In this document: one piece after another, positions 7,403 to 34,542 of the stretch | Layout of the letters: each line of letters begins with the position of its first letter | How positions within the stretch are numbered: position 1 is the stretch's first letter | Sequence record: NC_049826.1 | Length of the DNA stretch: 51,662 nucleotides | DNA from: Escherichia phage aaroes | Strand: one strand, 5' to 3' | Notes under the pieces: generated by a model | The model's database searches: none | What the model saw: only the letters and a program-made list of their open reading frames with translations | Told to the model about the DNA's origin: nothing | Translations under genes and position numbers: made by a program

Positions 7403-7477
7403 TATGCAATCCTCATTATATTTGGTGTGGTAACTATACCAGGTTTGAGAAATATTGTTTAGCAATTAGTGCTATCA
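7403..7477 (-). promoter_or_regulatory. early promoter cassette, variant core (TAGCACTAATTGCTAAAC)
   Basis: Variant core followed about 21 nt later by TATAGT and then TATAAT just before the RBS. Confidence 0.45.
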
Positions 7478-8129: not shown

Positions 8130-8414
8130 AACAACAGATCCAGTTAAAGAGATAAGCTGCCTTGTGATCTTGTGTCTGCGATACTGACGCGCAACAACCG
8201 GAAGATTTTCACCGCGCTGATGACCGAAGCAGATCGGCAACTCACCTTCAAGCGATCGGAATCCACCAAATTCAAGATCCCGCACTGGCTTTGAGCGCCA
8301 GGATTCAATAAATCCGCGCTCGTCACGAGTGATATAGCGGTATATGTTAGGGAGTGGCAATTGTATCCCATCAAAATACACTGTATCGGTATAGCTGTAA
8401 AACTTAGAACTCAT
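8124..8414 (-). CDS. hypothetical protein (96 aa)
   Basis: Start at internal ATG (MSSKFYS...) overlapping the stop of the 50-aa ORF upstream (ATGAGTTCTAA); stop TAG inside the repeat core. Confidence 0.45.
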   Translation of the reverse strand: MSSKFYSYTDTVYFDGIQLPLPNIYRYITRDERGFIESWRSKPVRDLEFGGFRSLEGELPICFGHQRGENLPVVARQYRRHKITRQLISLTGSVVE

Positions 8415-9719: not shown

Positions 9720-10060
9720 CACGCAAATGAGCCTCCGCAGTTCTTCCACGTTTCATGCTGTCATGCACACAAAAGAAACAATGTAAAATCTATATAAATA
9801 CACATTAAATCAATAAGTTATTTATATATGTATTTATATTTGTTTCTTATTGTTCTTGTTGTGTGATGGTTATTGGTATATGTTGCGATTTTTGTGTTGG
9901 TGGATATTGATTGTTTATTGTTCGATTTGGTTGATGATTATGGTTGCTCATGGTTGCGTATGATTCTTGATGTATTTATGTATATATCCGCGAAAATTCG
10001 TGAACAGCCACACAGCCAAAAAACATGGTGAGGATTCTTTTTAAATCATGCACTTAACTG
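9720..10060. other. AT-rich, GT-iteron-rich non-coding control region at the strand switch
   Basis: About 340 bp without a credible ORF; repeated TGATT/TGGTT/TGTGTG units; shares ATAAATCAATAAGTTA and TGTT(C)TTATTGTT with 39480-39800. Confidence 0.5.
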
Positions 10061-10111: not shown

Positions 10112-10140
10112 TTGACATCGACACGGCGCGGTGGCAACAT
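10112..10140 (+). promoter_or_regulatory. candidate sigma70-type promoter for the rightward early block
   Basis: TTGACA, 17-nt spacer, CAACAT, about 40 nt upstream of the first plus-strand ORF. Confidence 0.35.
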
Positions 10141-10904: not shown

Positions 10905-10976
10905 CACTTTTTGTTAAAACGCCAGGTGCGAATCCTGGCATAATAGCCTCATCGAAACGAGATTGAGGAAAACAAA
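10901..10976 (+). promoter_or_regulatory. early promoter-leader cassette copy (canonical)
   Basis: ATAGCACTTTTTGTTAAAAC, hairpin GCCAGG-tgcgaat-CCTGGC, CATAAT, leader ATCGAAACGAG, GAGGAAAACAAA, ATG. Confidence 0.6.
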
Positions 10977-11162
10977 ATGGCACGTCGCATCACCAAAGAC
11001 CTTAAAGTCCTGAACAAAGAAAACGTAGTTAAAATCCTGGTTATCTGGGGATACAACGAAGAAGCAGCAAAGCAGAAGGTAGAGGCAGGTTATGACCTGG
11101 CTGTAAAAGCAATGCCAAACGACGACGCCAAAGGCATTGCAAACTATGTAGCGTTCTTTTAA
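10977..11162 (+). CDS. hypothetical protein (61 aa)
   Basis: ORF directly behind the cassette. Confidence 0.5.
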   Translation: MARRITKDLKVLNKENVVKILVIWGYNEEAAKQKVEAGYDLAVKAMPNDDAKGIANYVAFF

Positions 11163-15025: not shown

Positions 15026-15095
15026 CACGAATTGCTAAAAGCGGGGCGCAATGCCTCGCTATAATGCAAACACCAATCAACGAGAGGACTTGAAC
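15021..15095 (+). promoter_or_regulatory. early promoter cassette copy (core AATAGCACGAATTGCTAAAA)
   Basis: Core, GC-rich imperfect repeat, TATAAT 15060-15065, leader AATCAACGAGAGGA. Confidence 0.55.
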
Positions 15096-18453: not shown

Positions 18454-18503
18454 ATTGCCTGCAATTTGTCTATAATGAGGCTTTGTTATAAGGAGGGCGC
18501 ATT

Positions 18504-19025
18504 ATGGCTAAAAACGTTGAGCCAGCAGTAAAGGCTTGCAATTTTAAAAAACTATATAATAAGCAATATGGCGATATTGCAAAAATGACAAAGGCGCACA
18601 AGTACACGCCGGAACAGGTGTTTGATCTGGCTGTGCGTTACTTTACGTGGGCCGAGGAAAACCATATACAGGCTGCGGAAACTGCATCCTTTCAGGGTGA
18701 TGTATACGAAAGCAAGATTCACAAGCCGCGCGTGTTCACCTTAAATGGATTCCGCTTATTCGCTGGGCTTTCTGCTTCCGTTCTTGAAAAATGGCGACGC
18801 GAGCCAGGATTCAGCGATGTTATGGACTTTATCGACGGCGTTGTTTACGAGCAAAAATTCCAGCTTGCCGCAAACAATATTGTTAACGCCGGATTCATTG
18901 GTAAAGAGATCGGCATTGAAAAGCCAGCAACCGTAACCATTGAGAATAACACAAGCGCAAGCGTTGACGCTGTAACGGCGGAGGAAGTCAAAGAGGCGGT
19001 AATTGACATTCTGGAGAAGATATAA
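18504..19025 (+). CDS. terS: terminase small subunit
   Basis: 173-aa ORF immediately upstream of and overlapping TerL; strong RBS GGAGGG; call rests on position and size. Confidence 0.6.
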   Translation: MAKNVEPAVKACNFKKLYNKQYGDIAKMTKAHKYTPEQVFDLAVRYFTWAEENHIQAAETASFQGDVYESKIHKPRVFTLNGFRLFAGLSASVLEKWRREPGFSDVMDFIDGVVYEQKFQLAANNIVNAGFIGKEIGIEKPATVTIENNTSASVDAVTAEEVKEAVIDILEKI

Positions 19026-20593
19026 TGCTGATTTGGGAAGACTTAACAGCGGCGCAAAAACGCGCCGTTAAGGAAATGAGCGAATATTCATTCGAAAAGA
19101 TGATCCGCATTTGGTTTCAACTTCTCCAGGGGCAAAGGTTCTTAGGAAACTGGCATTTCAGTTACCTATGTAGCGAAGTTGAAAAAATCATCAAAGGAGA
19201 GTCACAGAATGTAATTTTCAACATAACGCCAGGCAGCGGTAAAACAGAGATATTCTCGATCCATATGTCGCCTTACGCGTCATTGAAAAGTAAGAAGGTG
19301 CGAAATCTTAATCTTTCGTTTAGTGATGGCCTTGTCCAGCAGAATAGCAACCGCATTAAGGAGATTATTGGTTCTCCAGAATGGCAGGAGCTATGGCCTG
19401 GAAAGCTGGTAAAGGCAAGCGCAAAGGATCTGATTGTAACCGATGGCGGCAAGGTTAAATTGCAAGTTAACTCGCGATCTATAGGTGGTCAGGTTACTGG
19501 TCTGCGTGGCGGTTACATGGACGATGGATTTACTGGTATGCTGGTTCTTGACGATCCAGACAAGCCGGATGACATGCTTTCTAAGGTAAAGCGCGAAGCC
19601 GGACACATGCGCCTAAAGAACACAGTGCGATCGCGTCGAATGAAGGACACAACGCCCATCGTAATGGTCCAGCAACGGCTACACGTCAATGATTCAACAT
19701 GGTTCATGACAAACGGAGGTATGGGCGGCATCCAGTTTAAGGTTGTTAGCATTCCGGCGCTCGTTACTAAGGAATATCGCGAAACGCTTCCTGATTGGTT
19801 AAAGCCTGAGTTTGATCGCGATGTTTTGTCAAGTAAGCCAGTGATGATTGATGGAGTTGCTCATTATTCATTCTGGCCTGCTAAGGAAAGCGCGGAGGAA
19901 TTGCTTGCGCTTCGAAATGCTGATCCGTACACGTTCGCTAGTCAGTATCAGCAACAGCCTGTTGCGCTTGGCGGTAACGTGTTTAAAACAGAGTGGTTTC
20001 AGTATTACGGAAGCAGTGAGAAATGCACACTACCAAAACCGGATCGCTTTGAATACACATTTATCACGGTTGATACCGCGCAGAAAACAGGGGAGCTTAA
20101 CGACTATTCCGTGATCTGTTATTGGGGGATGTATAAAGATCGTGTTTACTTCATTGATGGCGTTCGCGGAAAATGGGAAGCACCGGACCTTGAGACGAAT
20201 TTTGTTGCATTCGTTAATCAGTGCTGGAAGCGCAATAAAGAATGCGGAACATTGCGAAGGATTCATGTTGAAGATAAGTCGTCTGGCACTGGCTTGATTC
20301 AGAGTGCAGCGAAAAAAATCATGATAAAGATCAATCCAGTTCAGCGTGATAAAGACAAGGTTACTCGTGCAATGGACGCAGCACCAGTAATGCGCGCCGG
20401 ACGCGTGGCACTTCCAGAATCGCATCCTATGCTGGCTGAGATACTAGCTGAAGTTGCGGCGTTTACATTCGATGATAGCCATCCTCATGATGATATTGTT
20501 GATAACATCATTGATGCGGTTAACATTGAAATGAACATGGCAGATGATCCGGTTGGAAGAATGAAAAAATTGGCAGGCTTGCGGAACAAATAG
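19025..20593 (+). CDS. terL: terminase large subunit
   Basis: 522 aa; Walker A ITPGSGKTE, Walker B LVLDDPD, acidic nuclease-like C-terminal half. Confidence 0.85.
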   Translation: MLIWEDLTAAQKRAVKEMSEYSFEKMIRIWFQLLQGQRFLGNWHFSYLCSEVEKIIKGESQNVIFNITPGSGKTEIFSIHMSPYASLKSKKVRNLNLSFSDGLVQQNSNRIKEIIGSPEWQELWPGKLVKASAKDLIVTDGGKVKLQVNSRSIGGQVTGLRGGYMDDGFTGMLVLDDPDKPDDMLSKVKREAGHMRLKNTVRSRRMKDTTPIVMVQQRLHVNDSTWFMTNGGMGGIQFKVVSIPALVTKEYRETLPDWLKPEFDRDVLSSKPVMIDGVAHYSFWPAKESAEELLALRNADPYTFASQYQQQPVALGGNVFKTEWFQYYGSSEKCTLPKPDRFEYTFITVDTAQKTGELNDYSVICYWGMYKDRVYFIDGVRGKWEAPDLETNFVAFVNQCWKRNKECGTLRRIHVEDKSSGTGLIQSAAKKIMIKINPVQRDKDKVTRAMDAAPVMRAGRVALPESHPMLAEILAEVAAFTFDDSHPHDDIVDNIIDAVNIEMNMADDPVGRMKKLAGLRNK

Positions 20594-20619
20594 CACGAAT
20601 TGCTAAAAGAAAGTATAAT
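20589..20619 (+). promoter_or_regulatory. repeat-core copy at the TerL/portal junction followed by TATAAT
   Basis: AATAGCACGAATTGCTAAAAG with the TerL stop TAG inside it; TATAAT 20614-20619 sits just before a terminator hairpin. Confidence 0.4.
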
Positions 20620-23834: not shown

Positions 23835-24347
23835 ATGGCTACAATTGGAGCAAGTTATTTTGCTGTAATGTCTCGTGCGTTACCTGGTCAGGTGTCTGAC
23901 ACTTCAGCTTATAATATTGATGGCGCTTGTGTTCTTGAGAATGCGGAAGGCAACCAGAACAAAAACATTTTTGTTGGTGTTGCAGTCCAGCATGGCGGCG
24001 TTGATGCTATGGGCAATAAGCTAATTAAGCCGATGGCGGCAAGCGGCAAGGCTTACGGTGTTGCAATTCGATCCCACTTCCAGACTACTTCTGCTGACGG
24101 TCGAATGATTTATGAATCTGGCGGCGGAATCAACGTAATGACTGAAGGGCGTGTTTGGATGTTGGCTAAAGACGCCACCGCTCCAGCGTTCGGAACTACA
24201 ATCAAACTGTCTGATGATGGTCAGGTTGATACCACGTCTGGCACTATCGAAACAAACTGGATCGCGACTGGTGATTTCACCAAGTTTCAAGACTTGAAGC
24301 TGGTAGAGGTTCAGGTGCAAAAAGTTCCGGTAGTTCCAGCAGGTTAA
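23835..24347 (+). CDS. head-associated structural protein, paralog A (possible decoration protein)
   Basis: Shares blocks with the next ORF (GRVWMLAKDATAPAFG vs GSVWCLTSESEAPEYG); strong RBS. Confidence 0.45.
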   Translation: MATIGASYFAVMSRALPGQVSDTSAYNIDGACVLENAEGNQNKNIFVGVAVQHGGVDAMGNKLIKPMAASGKAYGVAIRSHFQTTSADGRMIYESGGGINVMTEGRVWMLAKDATAPAFGTTIKLSDDGQVDTTSGTIETNWIATGDFTKFQDLKLVEVQVQKVPVVPAG

Positions 24348-24354
24348 TAAATAT

Positions 24355-24378
24355 GGCGCTCAGTGAGCGCCTTTTTTA
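24355..24378 (+). terminator. intrinsic terminator between the two paralogs
   Basis: GGCGC-tcagtga-GCGCC then 6 T. Confidence 0.75.
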
Positions 24379-24392
24379 TATTTGGAGTTCTC

Positions 24393-24827
24393 ATGAGTGA
24401 TTATTCAGTCATTGTTGGCGCTGAGTCGCCAGGATGCATGGTTGATTCTTCAATAATGGTGATTAATGGTTCTTTTGTATGTGGAGACGAGTTTATTTCA
24501 CCAGGTAAGATTGTAAGGTTATCATATATATCAAGCGGATATAAAATAGTCAGTGTTAATGGTGATCTAGTTATTGGCGTGGCAGTAAGACCGCCGGACT
24601 CGTGCATATATGAGGAGGGTGATCCCGTTAATGTGGTTAGTAGAGGTAGTGTGTGGTGCTTAACTTCTGAGAGCGAAGCGCCAGAATATGGAGATAAAGT
24701 ATTTGTAACGCAAGATGGAGATGCGGCATACAGTGAAGGCTACTTGCTGAGCGGTTGGATCTTTACTGGCGAACATGTAAAGGTTGATCATGATTCATAT
24801 ATTGTCGGGGTAAGCATTAGCGCATAA
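24393..24827 (+). CDS. head-associated structural protein, paralog B
   Basis: GGAG RBS before ATG 24393; paralogous to 23835-24347. Confidence 0.45.
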   Translation: MSDYSVIVGAESPGCMVDSSIMVINGSFVCGDEFISPGKIVRLSYISSGYKIVSVNGDLVIGVAVRPPDSCIYEEGDPVNVVSRGSVWCLTSESEAPEYGDKVFVTQDGDAAYSEGYLLSGWIFTGEHVKVDHDSYIVGVSISA

Positions 24828-24846
24828 CACAAAATTATGTTGCACG

Positions 24847-24865
24847 TTTAACAAAAAATGCTATC
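24847..24865 (-). promoter_or_regulatory. inverted copy of the early repeat core upstream of the capsid gene
   Basis: Plus strand TTTAACAAAAAATGCTATC is the reverse complement of ATAGCATTTTTTGTTAAA; minus-strand CATAAT lies 6 nt beyond it. Confidence 0.4.
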
Positions 24866-24910
24866 ATTGTGGCGTTACATACTAACAGCCTTTATATATG
24901 GAGGAAGAAA

Positions 24911-25885
24911 ATGGAAAAAGAAAAATTTGATCAGCTAGATGCGGATATTGTTTCTAGTTATCTGGCTACTCGCGGCGTTAAGGGTGATGCTTCTGATATG
25001 GGTATCTGGACGGCGCAAGAGCTTCACAAGATCCGCTCAACTGCTTACGAGAAAGAATATCCTGCAGGTTCAGCGCTTCGTGTATTCCCTGTAACTAATG
25101 AGCTTTCTGATACTGATAAGACTTTTGAATATCAGATGTTTGACAAAGTTGGTTACGCAAAAATTATCGCTGATTACACCGACGACCTGCCGACCGTTGA
25201 CGCGCTGATGTCCAGCGAATTTGGTAAAGTGTTCCGCTTGGGTAACGCGTTCTTGATCTCCATTGACGAAATCAAGGCTGGTCAGCGCACTGGTAAGAGC
25301 CTTTCCACTCGCAAGGCAAACGCAGCACAAAACGCTCATGATCAGGAAGTTAACCGCCTGGTGTTTAAGGGTTCAAAGCCGCATAAGATTCTTTCGGTGT
25401 TTGAACATCCTAACCTGACAAAGATCGTGTCAACTGGCTGGTTAAGTGCTGATGAAAACACTAAGTTCCCGCAGGCAGCATCTGATGAACTGGAAAAGGC
25501 TATTGAAACCATTCAGACCATCACCAATGGTCAGCACCGAGCAACCAACATCCTGATTCCGCCGTCTATGCGCAAGGTTCTTTCCGTTCGAATGGAAAAC
25601 ACCACTGAAAGTTATCTGGAATACTTCCAGAAACAAAACAGCGGAATCACCATTGACTCAATCGCAGAGCTTGAGGATATTGATGGCACAGGAACGAAAG
25701 GTTGCCTGGTATATGAGAAAGACCCGATGAACATGTCGATCGAAATTCCAGAAGCATTTAACATGCTTCCGGCGCAACCAAAAGATCTGCATTTCAAAGT
25801 TCCGTGCACTTCAAAATGTACTGGCCTGACGATTTACCGTCCGTTTACGCTAGTGCTTATTACTGGCTTGAAAAAATCAGGTTAA
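24911..25885 (+). CDS. major capsid protein
   Basis: 325 aa from GGAGGAAGAAA RBS; position after scaffold; followed by a strong terminator. Confidence 0.65.
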   Translation: MEKEKFDQLDADIVSSYLATRGVKGDASDMGIWTAQELHKIRSTAYEKEYPAGSALRVFPVTNELSDTDKTFEYQMFDKVGYAKIIADYTDDLPTVDALMSSEFGKVFRLGNAFLISIDEIKAGQRTGKSLSTRKANAAQNAHDQEVNRLVFKGSKPHKILSVFEHPNLTKIVSTGWLSADENTKFPQAASDELEKAIETIQTITNGQHRATNILIPPSMRKVLSVRMENTTESYLEYFQKQNSGITIDSIAELEDIDGTGTKGCLVYEKDPMNMSIEIPEAFNMLPAQPKDLHFKVPCTSKCTGLTIYRPFTLVLITGLKKSG

Positions 25886-25897
25886 TCGTATAACATT

Positions 25898-25927
25898 GGG
25901 GAATCCTTAACTGGATTCCCTTTTTTA
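25898..25927 (+). terminator. intrinsic terminator after the capsid gene
   Basis: GGGAATCC-ttaact-GGATTCCC plus a 6-T run. Confidence 0.85.
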
Positions 25928-25941
25928 TTGGAGGTTATGAA

Positions 25942-26214
25942 ATGGCTAAAGAAAAAACTGTAACGCTAAAGGTTTCCGGCGTATGCCTTATCATTGTTGA
26001 TGGTGAGCATTATCATCCAGGCAAAGAGTTTGACGTAGAAGAATCAAAGTTGAAAACAAGCGCGTTTGAATATCTAATTGCAAAAGGCGATCTGGAGGTC
26101 AAAGATAACTCCGCATTGAACGAAGAAATCAAACAGAGCGCAGCAAGCAAACGTAAAAAAGACCCGCGAGAGGGCAAGAGCAAAGCCGAACTTGAAGACG
26201 GCGGCATCTATTAA
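25942..26214 (+). CDS. hypothetical head-region protein (90 aa)
   Basis: GGAGG RBS; charged C-terminus. Confidence 0.45.
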
Positions 26215-26220
26215 TAAAGA

Positions 26221-26240
26221 GGGCGCTTATAGCGCCCTTT
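26221..26240 (+). terminator. candidate terminator (weak U-tract)
   Basis: GGGCGCT-tat-AGCGCCC followed by TTTG. Confidence 0.4.
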
Positions 26241-26261
26241 GTCATATCTGGAGGAAACACA

Positions 26262-26678
26262 ATGGTTGATGAATTTTTCACTGACGCAGAAATCACGCAG
26301 CAAATCGTGAAATTAGCGCCACCGATGAAGCAGATTGATCCAGATTTAATGGTGGCATGGATTGAGCTTGCAAAGGAATTTGTTTGCAAGAAGCGGTTTA
26401 AAGAATCATATCCAAAAGCGGTTGCTCTTTATACGTTGCACCTTATGACGCTTGACGGAGCTATGAAGCAAGAAGGGGAAAGCGTAGAGAGTTACTCACG
26501 GCGCGTGGCGTCATTTTCCCTGACTGGTGAATTTAGCCAGACTTTTGATCGAGTGTCAGGCGACTCTGACGGAAAAGAGATTAGACAAACTCCCTGGGGG
26601 AAAATGTACGAAACGCTAAATCGTAAGAAAGGCGGTGGATTTGGCCTTGTGACTGGATTTCGGAGGCGTTGCAAATGA
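26262..26678 (+). CDS. head-tail connector/adaptor protein (putative)
   Basis: First of four overlapping ORFs between capsid and tail-tube genes; call rests on position. Confidence 0.45.
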
Positions 26679-27046
26679 ACTATAACGAGATCGCAAGAAT
26701 GGCAACCGAAGGAATTAACTTCTTTAGTGATGGCAACGGTGAGTTTAAGTGCATAACGCAGCGTGGAAGCGTTGAAATCATCGGAGGCGAAGAAGTAGAA
26801 AAGCCAGAGATTAGTGTAATGATTAAGGGTTTAATTAGATCCCCCAAAGTCCGAGAGGTTGACGGCGAGACAATACGAGTAACCGATAAGTTGGGAGTTT
26901 TTAACAATAAAGTTGAAATTAAGAACGGGTATCATATTGATGTTGATGGTGAATTATATGTTGTAGTTGAAGCAAGACCAATCAGACAAACCAATGTCAC
27001 TGTTGCTTATCGGCCTATTTTGAGAAGGATTTCTGTACATGGCTAA
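26669..27046 (+). CDS. head closure / head-tail joining protein (putative)
   Basis: Position; overlapping start. Confidence 0.4.
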
Positions 27047-27482
27047 AAACTACACGATAAGAGAGTTTCACGGAAACATTGATGCGTGGATAAACGCCGT
27101 TGATAGTGGCCTGAAAGATTGCGTTGAGTTGTTCGCCGAAAAAGTGCATACAGATCTTGTTAAGCGTTCTCCGGTTGATACTGGTCGTTACCGTGCAAAC
27201 TGGCAGGTAACAGCAAACAAGCCGCCATTGTATGCGCTTAACCAGTACGATAAGCACGGAGACAAAACGATCGCGGAAGGAAAGCGAGCCATATACGCGA
27301 TTTTACGAGGTGGCGGCGCAGTAAGAGCCATTTATTTTTCAAACATGCTTATTTATGCTAACGCGCTTGAGTACGGTCATTCAAAACAAGCGCCAGCGGG
27401 TGTGCTTGGGATTGTAGCGGTTAAGTTGAGATCTTATATGGCTGAAGCAATAAAAGAGTCGAGGGCTAAAAATGCACTATGA
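27039..27482 (+). CDS. tail completion / neck protein (putative)
   Basis: Position; overlapping start. Confidence 0.4.
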   Translation: MAKNYTIREFHGNIDAWINAVDSGLKDCVELFAEKVHTDLVKRSPVDTGRYRANWQVTANKPPLYALNQYDKHGDKTIAEGKRAIYAILRGGGAVRAIYFSNMLIYANALEYGHSKQAPAGVLGIVAVKLRSYMAEAIKESRAKNAL

Positions 27483-27870
27483 ATTAATGCTATCGGCGCG
27501 TAAGGCGCTGGCGACTGAATACGAGAGCAGATTCATTATCGCTTATGAAAACGTAGAGTTTACGCCACCTGGTGACGGTTCGCCGTGGTTGAAGTTTGAC
27601 TATGCCGAAGTTGACACAGAATACTTGTCATTGGATCGAAAATGCGTTTCCTATATCGGAATGATTCAGGTTGGCATTGTGTTTCCACCAGGTTACGGAA
27701 CTGACAGGCCGCGCGTTCTCGCTAAAGAGATTGCGCAATTCTTTTACGATGGTAAAATGCTGGAGCATGGTTATATATATGAGGGTGCAAGAGTTCACAA
27801 GCCGCTCAAGAGTGAAAGCGGTTGGATTCTCCCAATAAGGTTTTATGTTCGAATTGAAACAAAGGAGTAA
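27472..27870 (+). CDS. tail terminator protein (putative)
   Basis: Position directly upstream of the tube gene. Confidence 0.4.
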   Translation: MHYELMLSARKALATEYESRFIIAYENVEFTPPGDGSPWLKFDYAEVDTEYLSLDRKCVSYIGMIQVGIVFPPGYGTDRPRVLAKEIAQFFYDGKMLEHGYIYEGARVHKPLKSESGWILPIRFYVRIETKE

Positions 27871-27875
27871 AAATT

Positions 27876-28538
27876 ATGCATTTACCAAATGGATCGCAAA
27901 TTTTCGTTGAGAGCAATCGCGGAAGCGAAATCCAAGCAACAGCAGTGTCAAACGCCAAAGATCCTGTTTTCACTGTTGCATCTGGCGGCACTGCGTACAA
28001 GAAAGGTGATTATGTGATCATCACTGCGTCTTCTTGGGGTAAGCTGATTGATCGTGTTATGCGTGTAAAGGCTAACGGTGAAGAAACAAGCGTGACTCTT
28101 GAAGGCGTAGATACTACTGATCAGAACGTTTTCCCGTCTGGCGGTACTGCATCTTTTGCCAAAATTGATGCATGGACGGAGATCCCTTGCGTTCAGGATT
28201 TGTCGCAGGGCGGCGGCGAACAGCAATACTATACTTATCAGTGTTTGGCAGACGACCAGGAACAGCAGTTACCTACCTATAAGAGCGCCGTTTCTCTGAC
28301 CTACACTTTTGCGCACGAATACGATAACGCGATCTATCCGCTACTTCGTACAGCAGATGAGTCAGGCGCTGTAACGGCGCTTCGCATGTGTGTACCAAAA
28401 GCAAAAGAGATGCGTTGCTGGGCTGGTGTCCTTTCGTTTAACGAGATCCCACAAACGACCGTTAACGAAATGGAAACTGTTTCCCTGTCTGTATCCCTGA
28501 AAGGTCGATTCACCTTCCTACCTTCTCAAGTAGCATAA
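27876..28538 (+). CDS. major tail (tube) protein
   Basis: 220 aa, strong RBS AAGGAG, followed by a strong terminator and then the chaperone genes. Confidence 0.55.
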   Translation: MHLPNGSQIFVESNRGSEIQATAVSNAKDPVFTVASGGTAYKKGDYVIITASSWGKLIDRVMRVKANGEETSVTLEGVDTTDQNVFPSGGTASFAKIDAWTEIPCVQDLSQGGGEQQYYTYQCLADDQEQQLPTYKSAVSLTYTFAHEYDNAIYPLLRTADESGAVTALRMCVPKAKEMRCWAGVLSFNEIPQTTVNEMETVSLSVSLKGRFTFLPSQVA

Positions 28539-28543
28539 TCACA

Positions 28544-28566
28544 AGGGGCGTTGCGCCCCTTTTTTT
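28544..28566 (+). terminator. intrinsic terminator after the tail tube gene
   Basis: AGGGGCG-ttg-CGCCCCT plus a 7-T run. Confidence 0.85.
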
Positions 28567-28605
28567 GTTACTGTACAATCATGATAAACGATTCATAATC
28601 AATTC

Positions 28606-28625
28606 TTTTAACAAAAAGTGCTATC
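28606..28625 (-). promoter_or_regulatory. inverted copy of the early repeat core upstream of the tail chaperone gene
   Basis: Plus strand TTTTAACAAAAAGTGCTATC is the exact reverse complement of the early core; flanked upstream by TACAAT and CATAAT. Confidence 0.4.
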
Positions 28626-28637
28626 AAGGAGAAAGAA

Positions 28638-28955
28638 ATGTCAAAAATGAAATTGACGATTGGGCCGCTTCCTGACTTTAAATTACCAGTGAAATTTGCA
28701 ATGCCTAACGGAGAAGATCAAACAATTATCTTCACAGTTCGCCACCGCAAAACAAGTGAGATTCACGAGCGCTACACGTCAGATACTCCAATGAGCGATG
28801 TTGAAATGATCACCTTCCTTGCTTCCGGTTGGAATCTTGATGATGAATTTAACGAAGAAAATATTAAACAGCTTCTTGATTACTACCCAGCAACAGCAAT
28901 CGGATTAACTAGCGCATACATGAAAGCGCTTGCGGGGCAGCGAGTAAAAAACTAA
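28638..28955 (+). CDS. tail assembly chaperone (lambda gpG analogue)
   Basis: 105 aa ORF upstream of the tape measure gene ending in slippery A-AAA-AAC. Confidence 0.6.
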   Translation: MSKMKLTIGPLPDFKLPVKFAMPNGEDQTIIFTVRHRKTSEIHERYTSDTPMSDVEMITFLASGWNLDDEFNEENIKQLLDYYPATAIGLTSAYMKALAGQRVKN

Positions 28956-29266
28956 AAAGGGCGGTTTACCTGTTTTATCAGAAACCGCCGACAGATGCAG
29001 AGCTTGAGGCAGTTGGCCTTACAAGGGCAGACTATGAAGGAGAAGATCCGCCAGAGGTTATATTTGATGAAAGCATGATGCAATCATGGGATATATTTTG
29101 CGCAATGCAAACGCAATGGCGATGTTCTGGCGGTGGCGCTTACGGATTTGATTATAATGTCTTGCCTATGCTTTTTGAGATTTACAAGGTTGAGGATCGC
29201 GAGATGGCGCTAAACGACTTGCGAATCATGGAGCAAAAAGCACTTGAAATGATGCATTCAAAATAA
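28638..29266 (+). CDS. tail assembly chaperone frameshift product (gpGT analogue, -1 shift near 28952)
   Basis: The -1 frame is open from 28946 to the stop at 29264-29266. Confidence 0.55.
28946..28990 (+). other. programmed -1 ribosomal frameshift signal (slippery heptamer plus downstream hairpin)
   Basis: A-AAA-AAC at 28946-28952; stem GGCGGTTT (28960-28967) / AAACCGCC (28983-28990) 7 nt downstream. Confidence 0.6.
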
Positions 29267-29305
29267 GCGCCTACGGGCGCTTTTTTATTACCTGGAGGAT
29301 TAATA

Positions 29306-34470: not shown

Positions 34471-34497
34471 AGTCGCGCGTTGCGCGGCTTTTTTTTT
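34471..34497 (+). terminator. intrinsic terminator before the J-like gene
   Basis: 8-bp GC stem (AGTCGCGCG / GCGCGGCT) with a 3-nt loop plus 9 T; followed by TATAAT and a degenerate core (AAATAGCAC). Confidence 0.85.
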
Positions 34498-34542
34498 GCC
34501 CGTATAATTCAACAAATCAAATAGCACAAAAGGTGAAAAAGC

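Follow-up and report, generated by a model that had tools for sequence, protein, structure and literature searches.

What two inverted copies of an early repeat do inside a late structural operon is the question raised by the 51,662-nucleotide DNA of Escherichia phage aaroes (NC_049826.1; the whole of this stretch is called the window here). The repeat is a 19-bp core, TTTAACAAAAARTGCTATY. An earlier note, made from the letters of the window, had placed the two late copies at 24847-24865 and 28606-28625, and offered two explanations: that they drive antisense transcription into late genes, or that the core is an orientation-independent protein-binding site used to time the early-to-late switch. 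Both copies are present, at 24847-24865 and 28607-28625 (the second start had been set one base early), and it is the latter explanation that appears to fit best, given a near-palindromic core, its deep conservation and the gene for a Cro-like helix-turn-helix (HTH) protein adjacent to it in five of five genomes. More specifically, we lean, with somewhat better than even confidence, towards the late copies being operator sites for a single phage regulator, embedded in two forward late promoters, such that the regulator would activate early transcription and repress late transcription.

The window is a T1-like coliphage of the Drexlerviridae (Hanrivervirus), whose late genes run on the plus strand, left to right; in a similarity search, positions 24300-29300 presented 97% identity to Hanrivervirus coliphages, e.g., G29-2, pSf-1 and KarlJaspers. 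The full genomes of T1, which belongs to a different subfamily, of Samwise and of Klebsiella phage K50 were compared with it, and conservation was sampled in 62 IMG/VR loci with the tail-tube gene as centre. Distinct sequences were aligned for the copy 1 region (36) and for the copy 2 region (29, all core-bearing). Conservation in relatives, the lack of which the earlier note had named as refuting its proposal, was confirmed: T1 carries a core in matching orientation at each of the two places (15069-15087, ahead of its major head gene, and 18833-18851, past its tail-tube terminator), as do dozens of relatives, and every core match at the two late places in the 62 loci lies on the gene strand.

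The core is found in 16 copies in the window with at most three mismatches, against 0.08 expected from shuffled sequences. Fourteen of these read AATAGCACTTTTTGTTAAA toward the downstream early gene; the two late copies run against the direction of the late genes. With half-sites 10 bp apart, TA(A/G)CA-N5-TGCTA, the core is nearly palindromic. In a second variant, TTTAGCAATTCGTGCTATT, the half-sites are perfectly symmetric, and once the central N5 is disregarded the window presents 22 cores. Those at 7458, 15021, 20589 and 39428 are perfect palindromes, with the two-fold symmetry of a Cro/CI-type operator.

A -10 element (TAnnnT or CATAAT) lies 19-21 nt past the TTTAAC end of 19 of the 22 window cores; on the other side, taken as a control, one of the 22 has it. 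The same spacing is found for the cores of T1 (16/22), Samwise (17/21) and K50 (15/20). In the early orientation the distance to the hexamer is 19-20 nt, and the hexamers include TATATT, CATAAT, TATAGT and TATAAT. The window cores without such an element (20589, 24847 and 34520) are all three in the late operon, and most exceptions across the four genomes occur at late-gene promoters, namely those of terS, portal, capsid, tail tip and tail fibre. The predicted promoters at these 19 cores are of a -10-only type: the TTGTTA of the core, 22 nt away from the -10, was rejected as a -35, and no other -35 is present. Class II activators sit centred at about -42, and the core, centred near -42 of the predicted early promoters, presents this geometry; hence the regulator probably switches the early and middle promoters on.

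Most early units continue past the -10 with a CATCGAAACGA-like leader, then a ribosome-binding site and an ATG, and the early repeats look as though a cassette (core, hairpin, -10, leader) had spread. The leader (e.g., at 10939-10980) could act in translation or RNA stability. As a further observation, the symmetric core with the centre ATTCG is far commoner at the early promoters of K50, where it dominates, and of Samwise, and the capsid promoters of both phages retain the centre AAAAG. No description of the motif came up in exact-sequence and keyword searches of the literature. Genome papers on T1-like phages used generic promoter predictors and do not mention it, and Rfam yielded zero matches in the whole window at the family gathering score.

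Other roles for the core were considered and set aside. Compared with the UP element consensus, its A and T runs are shifted by about 7 nt. A role at the RNA level is unlikely, since the two orientations would yield complementary RNAs rather than the same RNA, and so is one in replication or packaging, given how dispersed the sites are and how strictly they keep their distance to a -10 hexamer.

Copy 1 stands in an 83-nt gap that follows the gene at 24363-24827 and precedes the capsid ATG (24911). The two genes upstream of the capsid gene are indeed paralogs, as had been proposed (28% identity, E-value 5e-14). The features of this gap, including those of the predicted forward capsid promoter P_mcp, are as follows.

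24840-24845, plus strand: -35 of P_mcp, TTGCAC; its TTG is invariant in the 36 distinct relatives, and T1 has TTGACG.
24847-24865, plus strand: late copy 1 of the core, TTTAACAAAAAATGCTATC, covering the 16-nt spacer, the TGn (24859-24861) and the first 4 nt of the -10.
24862-24867, plus strand: -10 of P_mcp, TATCAT; TAnnnT is kept in nearly all relatives, and the predicted start is at about 24874.
24871-24893, plus strand: hairpin and T-run, beginning 3 nt past the -10 of P_mcp, with co-varying stems.

The whole reads TTGCAC-g-TTTAACAAAAAATGC-TATCAT, i.e., a -35, a 16-nt spacer, TGn and a -10. This is the arrangement of a sigma-70 promoter with an extended -10, a -35-like hexamer being found at 16 nt and TGC TATCAT at 24859-24867. 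The T1 equivalent, TTGACG-16-TATTAT, is the top promoter-scan match in that 4-kb stretch (10/12, with TG). Conservation among the 36 sequences extends to the TTG, TGn and TA...T and to an upstream A-run; the core hardly varies, while the surrounding bases do. The TTG of the -35, the TGn and the -10 are kept across lineages down to 53% tail-tube identity, and the most distant Klebsiella phages present a blastn match to the window only across 24825-24893. Among lineages with tail-tube identities down to about 66% the 15-nt spacer is almost unchanged, and it has decayed in the most distant group; its neighbours vary throughout. In one Klebsiella lineage, a 1-nt insertion damages the right half-site of copy 1; the -35 and -10 are kept, the latter shifted by 1 nt. 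This pattern of conservation places copy 1 within a predicted forward sigma-70 promoter of the major capsid gene, itself conserved. No promoter is annotated at copy 1 in any record among the matches listed by two similarity searches, and the earlier note had overlooked the sense-direction promoters around both copies. A simple promoter scan of the window presented no enrichment, with 26 matches against 31 expected.

Across relatives, the hairpin begins 0-3 nt after the -10 and is followed by a T-run in most lineages. Its energy is -11 to -15 kcal/mol in most relatives, the window version being weak at about -6. It probably terminates upstream transcripts, and capsid transcripts would begin within its 5' arm. 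The copy 1 intergenic stretch is also matched by 19 GenBank records titled 'Campylobacter phage' (MG065636-MG065687); the eight among the matches listed present 94-99.5% identity to the window coliphage, and their host labels look doubtful.

Copy 2 lies between the tail-tube terminator and the chaperone ATG at 28638, where it abuts the ribosome-binding site AAGGAG (28626-28631). Two opposed promoters are predicted here, the forward one, P_tac, serving the chaperone and tape-measure genes.

28543-28561, plus strand: tail-tube terminator, whose loop TTGCGC (28551-28556) doubles as the -35 of P_tac.
28574-28579, plus strand: -10 of P_tac, TACAAT, 17 nt from TTGCGC; predicted start at about 28586.
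28581-28586, minus strand: -10 TATCAT, 20 nt from copy 2; predicted minus-strand start at about 28574.
28607-28625, plus strand: late copy 2 of the core, TTTAACAAAAAGTGCTATC, spanning about +22 to +40 relative to P_tac; for the minus-strand promoter it stands at about -42.

The pair formed by TTGCGC and the -10 of P_tac is present in all 29 core-bearing sequences, the -10 reading TAnAAT in each, and core-less lineages still have a -10 at this position. The distance from the -10 of P_tac to copy 2 is 27 nt in every core-bearing sequence, with the intervening sequence variable. On the minus strand, copy 2 shows the early-type spacing: TAnnnT is found 20 nt away in 29/29 sequences, through nine different hexamers and 20 distinct spacer sequences, and is preceded by TGn in 24 of them. 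This minus-strand hexamer is absent in the lineages without copy 2, including Samwise and K50. Since the two -10s are just 1 bp apart, the promoters overlap face-to-face. A minus-strand promoter at copy 2 is plausible on these grounds, and it likely competes with the overlapping forward promoter rather than making a long antisense RNA. A further promoter-like pair, TGTACA-16-CATAAT, is found at 28572-28599, just before copy 2, in the window and its close relatives and not in T1.

Which protein might bind the core is suggested by a gene that adjoins one of its copies.

47636-48109, minus strand: candidate core-binding protein, 157 amino acids, an all-alpha HTH of the Cro-like kind whose N-terminal arm is basic and conserved.
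48122-48140, plus strand: core between this regulator gene and the helicase gene (ATG 48199), with a conserved TATTATA at 48160-48166.

The protein presents below-threshold Pfam scores for YdaS and P22 Cro and matches a PHROG transcriptional-regulator family; its family is that of T1 gp23. Both its profile and its predicted structure (mean pLDDT, the predicted local distance difference test, of 85) match all-alpha Cro proteins, namely Xfaso1 Cro (template modelling score 0.75) and N15 Cro. Its relatives come almost exclusively from contigs whose length, about 50 kb, is that of such phage genomes. Residues 14-33, before the HTH, form a near-invariant basic arm, DKRTxNGNNGTRRGKDKKxRK, where model confidence is low. 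In each of the five genomes checked, the regulator and helicase genes have a core between them, in keeping with the adjacent HTH gene of Cro/CI-type operators, and a second one is found at the 3' end of the regulator gene in three (the window, T1 and K50). The TATTATA at 48160-48166 forms overlapping -10s on both strands and is conserved in T1, Samwise and K50. On these predictions, the likeliest protein to bind the core is this Cro-like regulator of the phage itself, as a dimer.

The late operon of the window holds two weaker cores besides, which the earlier note had overlooked.

20589-20607, plus strand: portal-promoter core, variant AATAGCACGAATTGCTAAA, over the large-terminase stop codon.
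34520-34538, plus strand: degenerate tail-tip core, AATAGCACAAAAGGTGAAA, downstream of a terminator-embedded promoter and before the tail-tip gene.

The portal core is followed after 6 nt by TATAAT (20614-20619), a terminator (the stretch runs to 20643) and the portal gene, a layout also found in Samwise and K50 and not in T1. The tail-tip promoter lies in a terminator (34474-34508) and consists of TTGCGC (34480-34485), 17 nt and TATAAT (34503-34508); T1, Samwise and K50 hold better-matching cores at this position. The T1 promoters of the small terminase and the tail fibre each have a core over the transcription start as well; in the window these two cores are degenerate. One such decayed relic, AATGAGGCTTTGTTATAA, is found at 18470-18495, after the -10 before the small-terminase gene, where the T1 core is intact (8361-8379). 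The position of the core at late promoters ranges from about -28 to +31, which suits blocking and not activation. As for the terminators, about nine intrinsic ones punctuate the late operon between 18431 and 34486, some without a promoter behind. Those of the window with a TTGC loop (28543-28579 and 34474-34508) are those with a -10 after the T-run; six late terminators with other loops have no -10 after them and run directly into a ribosome-binding site.

From the observed sites, their conservation and their geometry we infer a binding protein, a direction for each effect and a relief of late repression. A regulator dimer would bind at -42 of about 19 -10-only promoters and turn the early and middle promoters on. 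Given copy 1 fills the spacer and the extended -10 of the capsid promoter, a protein bound there would exclude RNA polymerase from it. At copy 2, which lies at -42 of the minus-strand promoter with interleaved -10s, the regulator would draw polymerase to that strand and by doing so shut the forward chaperone and tape-measure promoter. The same opposing-promoter arrangement at the regulator's own gene would turn the regulator promoter down. A single factor would in this way turn on the early promoters and shut the late boosters, and dilution of the regulator by genome replication is one possibility for the release of the latter.

Several points weigh against this proposal. Late repression by an early protein would require a release mechanism in addition. 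The -35 at copy 1 matches the consensus at only three of six positions in the window, which is why the simple scan misses P_mcp. Copy 2 is dispensable, because several lineages lose it yet keep the forward promoter. Finally, the core half-sites are invariant even with the most distant regulator homologues, which leaves no co-variation of site and protein.

That both copies are antisense promoters making RNAs against late genes appears improbable. Copy 2 is where this explanation stands firmest, since its minus strand presents the full early-type geometry of core, 20 nt and TATCAT, kept in relatives as described above, and to this extent the earlier proposal of antisense promoters is plausible. 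It fails at copy 1: no minus-strand -10 is found at 19-21 nt from it in the window (TATGCG), T1 (TATACA), Samwise or K50, nor in any other relative, TATTGG being among the forms. Neither late copy has the conserved leader or an open reading frame behind it, as the earlier note had stated, though copy 2 has its -10 at the exact early spacing of 20 nt. A minus-strand transcript from copy 2 would also run directly into the reversed tail-tube terminator, and the forward promoters account for the position and orientation of both copies. Somewhat less probable still is that no protein is involved, the late copies being leftovers of duplicated promoter cassettes kept for their polymerase contacts (TGn, TAT). 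The cassette-like appearance of the early repeats agrees with such an origin, and the core end TGCTAT does supply the extended -10 of copy 1. However, spacer sequence is not read by polymerase, yet that of copy 1 is the nearly invariant part, and copy 2 gives the forward promoter no element, yet its sequence and exact spacing are kept.

Granting a bound protein, it might belong to the host rather than be the phage HTH protein, which we regard as improbable. The Lrp consensus is YAGHAWATTWTDCTR, and by eye the core agrees with it at 11-13 of 15 positions; a host factor would also allow the -42 promoters to fire at once on infection. The Lrp match is weak, however, and comes from a by-eye comparison only. 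The regulator gene has a core next to it in each of the genomes checked, as is typical for phage proteins that regulate themselves. Alternatively, the cores might act positively at late promoters, e.g., by loading a polymerase factor for terminator read-through. Lambda Q acts from a site in the PR' spacer, between the -35 and -10, and copy 1 lies between the same two elements; the several intrinsic terminators of the late operon, some without a promoter behind, would give such a factor work to do. We consider this very unlikely, given that the candidate protein (the regulator gene is the sole candidate examined) has a Cro-like fold, that core positions from about -28 to +31 fit steric blocking better than one loading mechanism, and that the same core stands at -42 of 19 promoters.

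Operator sites for a phage regulator that activates early and represses late promoters remain the reading we prefer, and it can be extended. The Cro-fold protein could be the master timer of a virulent phage, activating about 19 promoters from -42 and keeping all late boosters shut, partly via face-to-face pairs; replication would then dilute it over hundreds of genomes with about 22 sites each, turning early promoters off and late ones on together. This extension as a whole is unlikely. A bolder variant would have the factor load onto polymerase at the cores and carry it through the late terminators.

Apart from the cores, some 230 nt between divergent early gene blocks (9760-9990) are AT-rich, have no open reading frame of at least 60 amino acids and are dense in short T/G-rich repeats; they may represent a replication origin or a control region. 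Just downstream, TTGACA (10113-10118) is followed after 17 nt by CAACAT, a weak -10 match.

To our knowledge, nobody has yet worked out how T1, which uses host RNA polymerase only, times its genes. The map presented here, with about 22 sites, one candidate regulator and predicted starts at about 24874 and 28586 on the plus strand and about 28574 on the minus strand, is directly testable. It also offers compact parts for the engineering of T1-like phages, namely terminator-embedded promoters and a candidate regulator-operator pair.

In comparison with known systems, each kind of part and mechanism is already known, and what is new is the wiring of the core into late promoters, which is unreported. 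Among the closest parallels are lambda CI and Cro at OR, where an HTH dimer on near-palindromes activates one promoter from a site at about -42 and represses another from sites over its core promoter, and where the regulator gene adjoins its own sites. Unlike lambda, the phage here is strictly lytic and has about 22 dispersed sites instead of two operator clusters, and its candidate protein, of about 157 amino acids, has extra N- and C-terminal parts and a binding to the core that we infer. Mor and C of phage Mu, and CRP and FNR at class II promoters, also act from a site over the -35 region, at about -42, where the -10 is good and there is no -35; they differ in that the candidate here has a Cro-like fold and that the same site is also found in repressing positions. 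The p4 switch of phi29 likewise has one phage DNA-binding protein act with opposite sign on early and late promoters, although the predicted sign is reversed here, with late promoters repressed, and there is no sequence or structural relationship. The PeSL cassettes of T4 are repeated early-promoter units with a stem-loop between small early genes; the T1-like unit, whose mobility is conjectural, differs in having a palindrome that resembles a protein site at a fixed distance from the -10. Lastly, pR and pL of coliphage 186 are opposed, face-to-face promoters that compete, activity at one lowering the other. Whereas in 186 it is elongating polymerases that interfere, the -10s at copy 2 are 1 bp apart and polymerase binding at the two promoters should be mutually exclusive.

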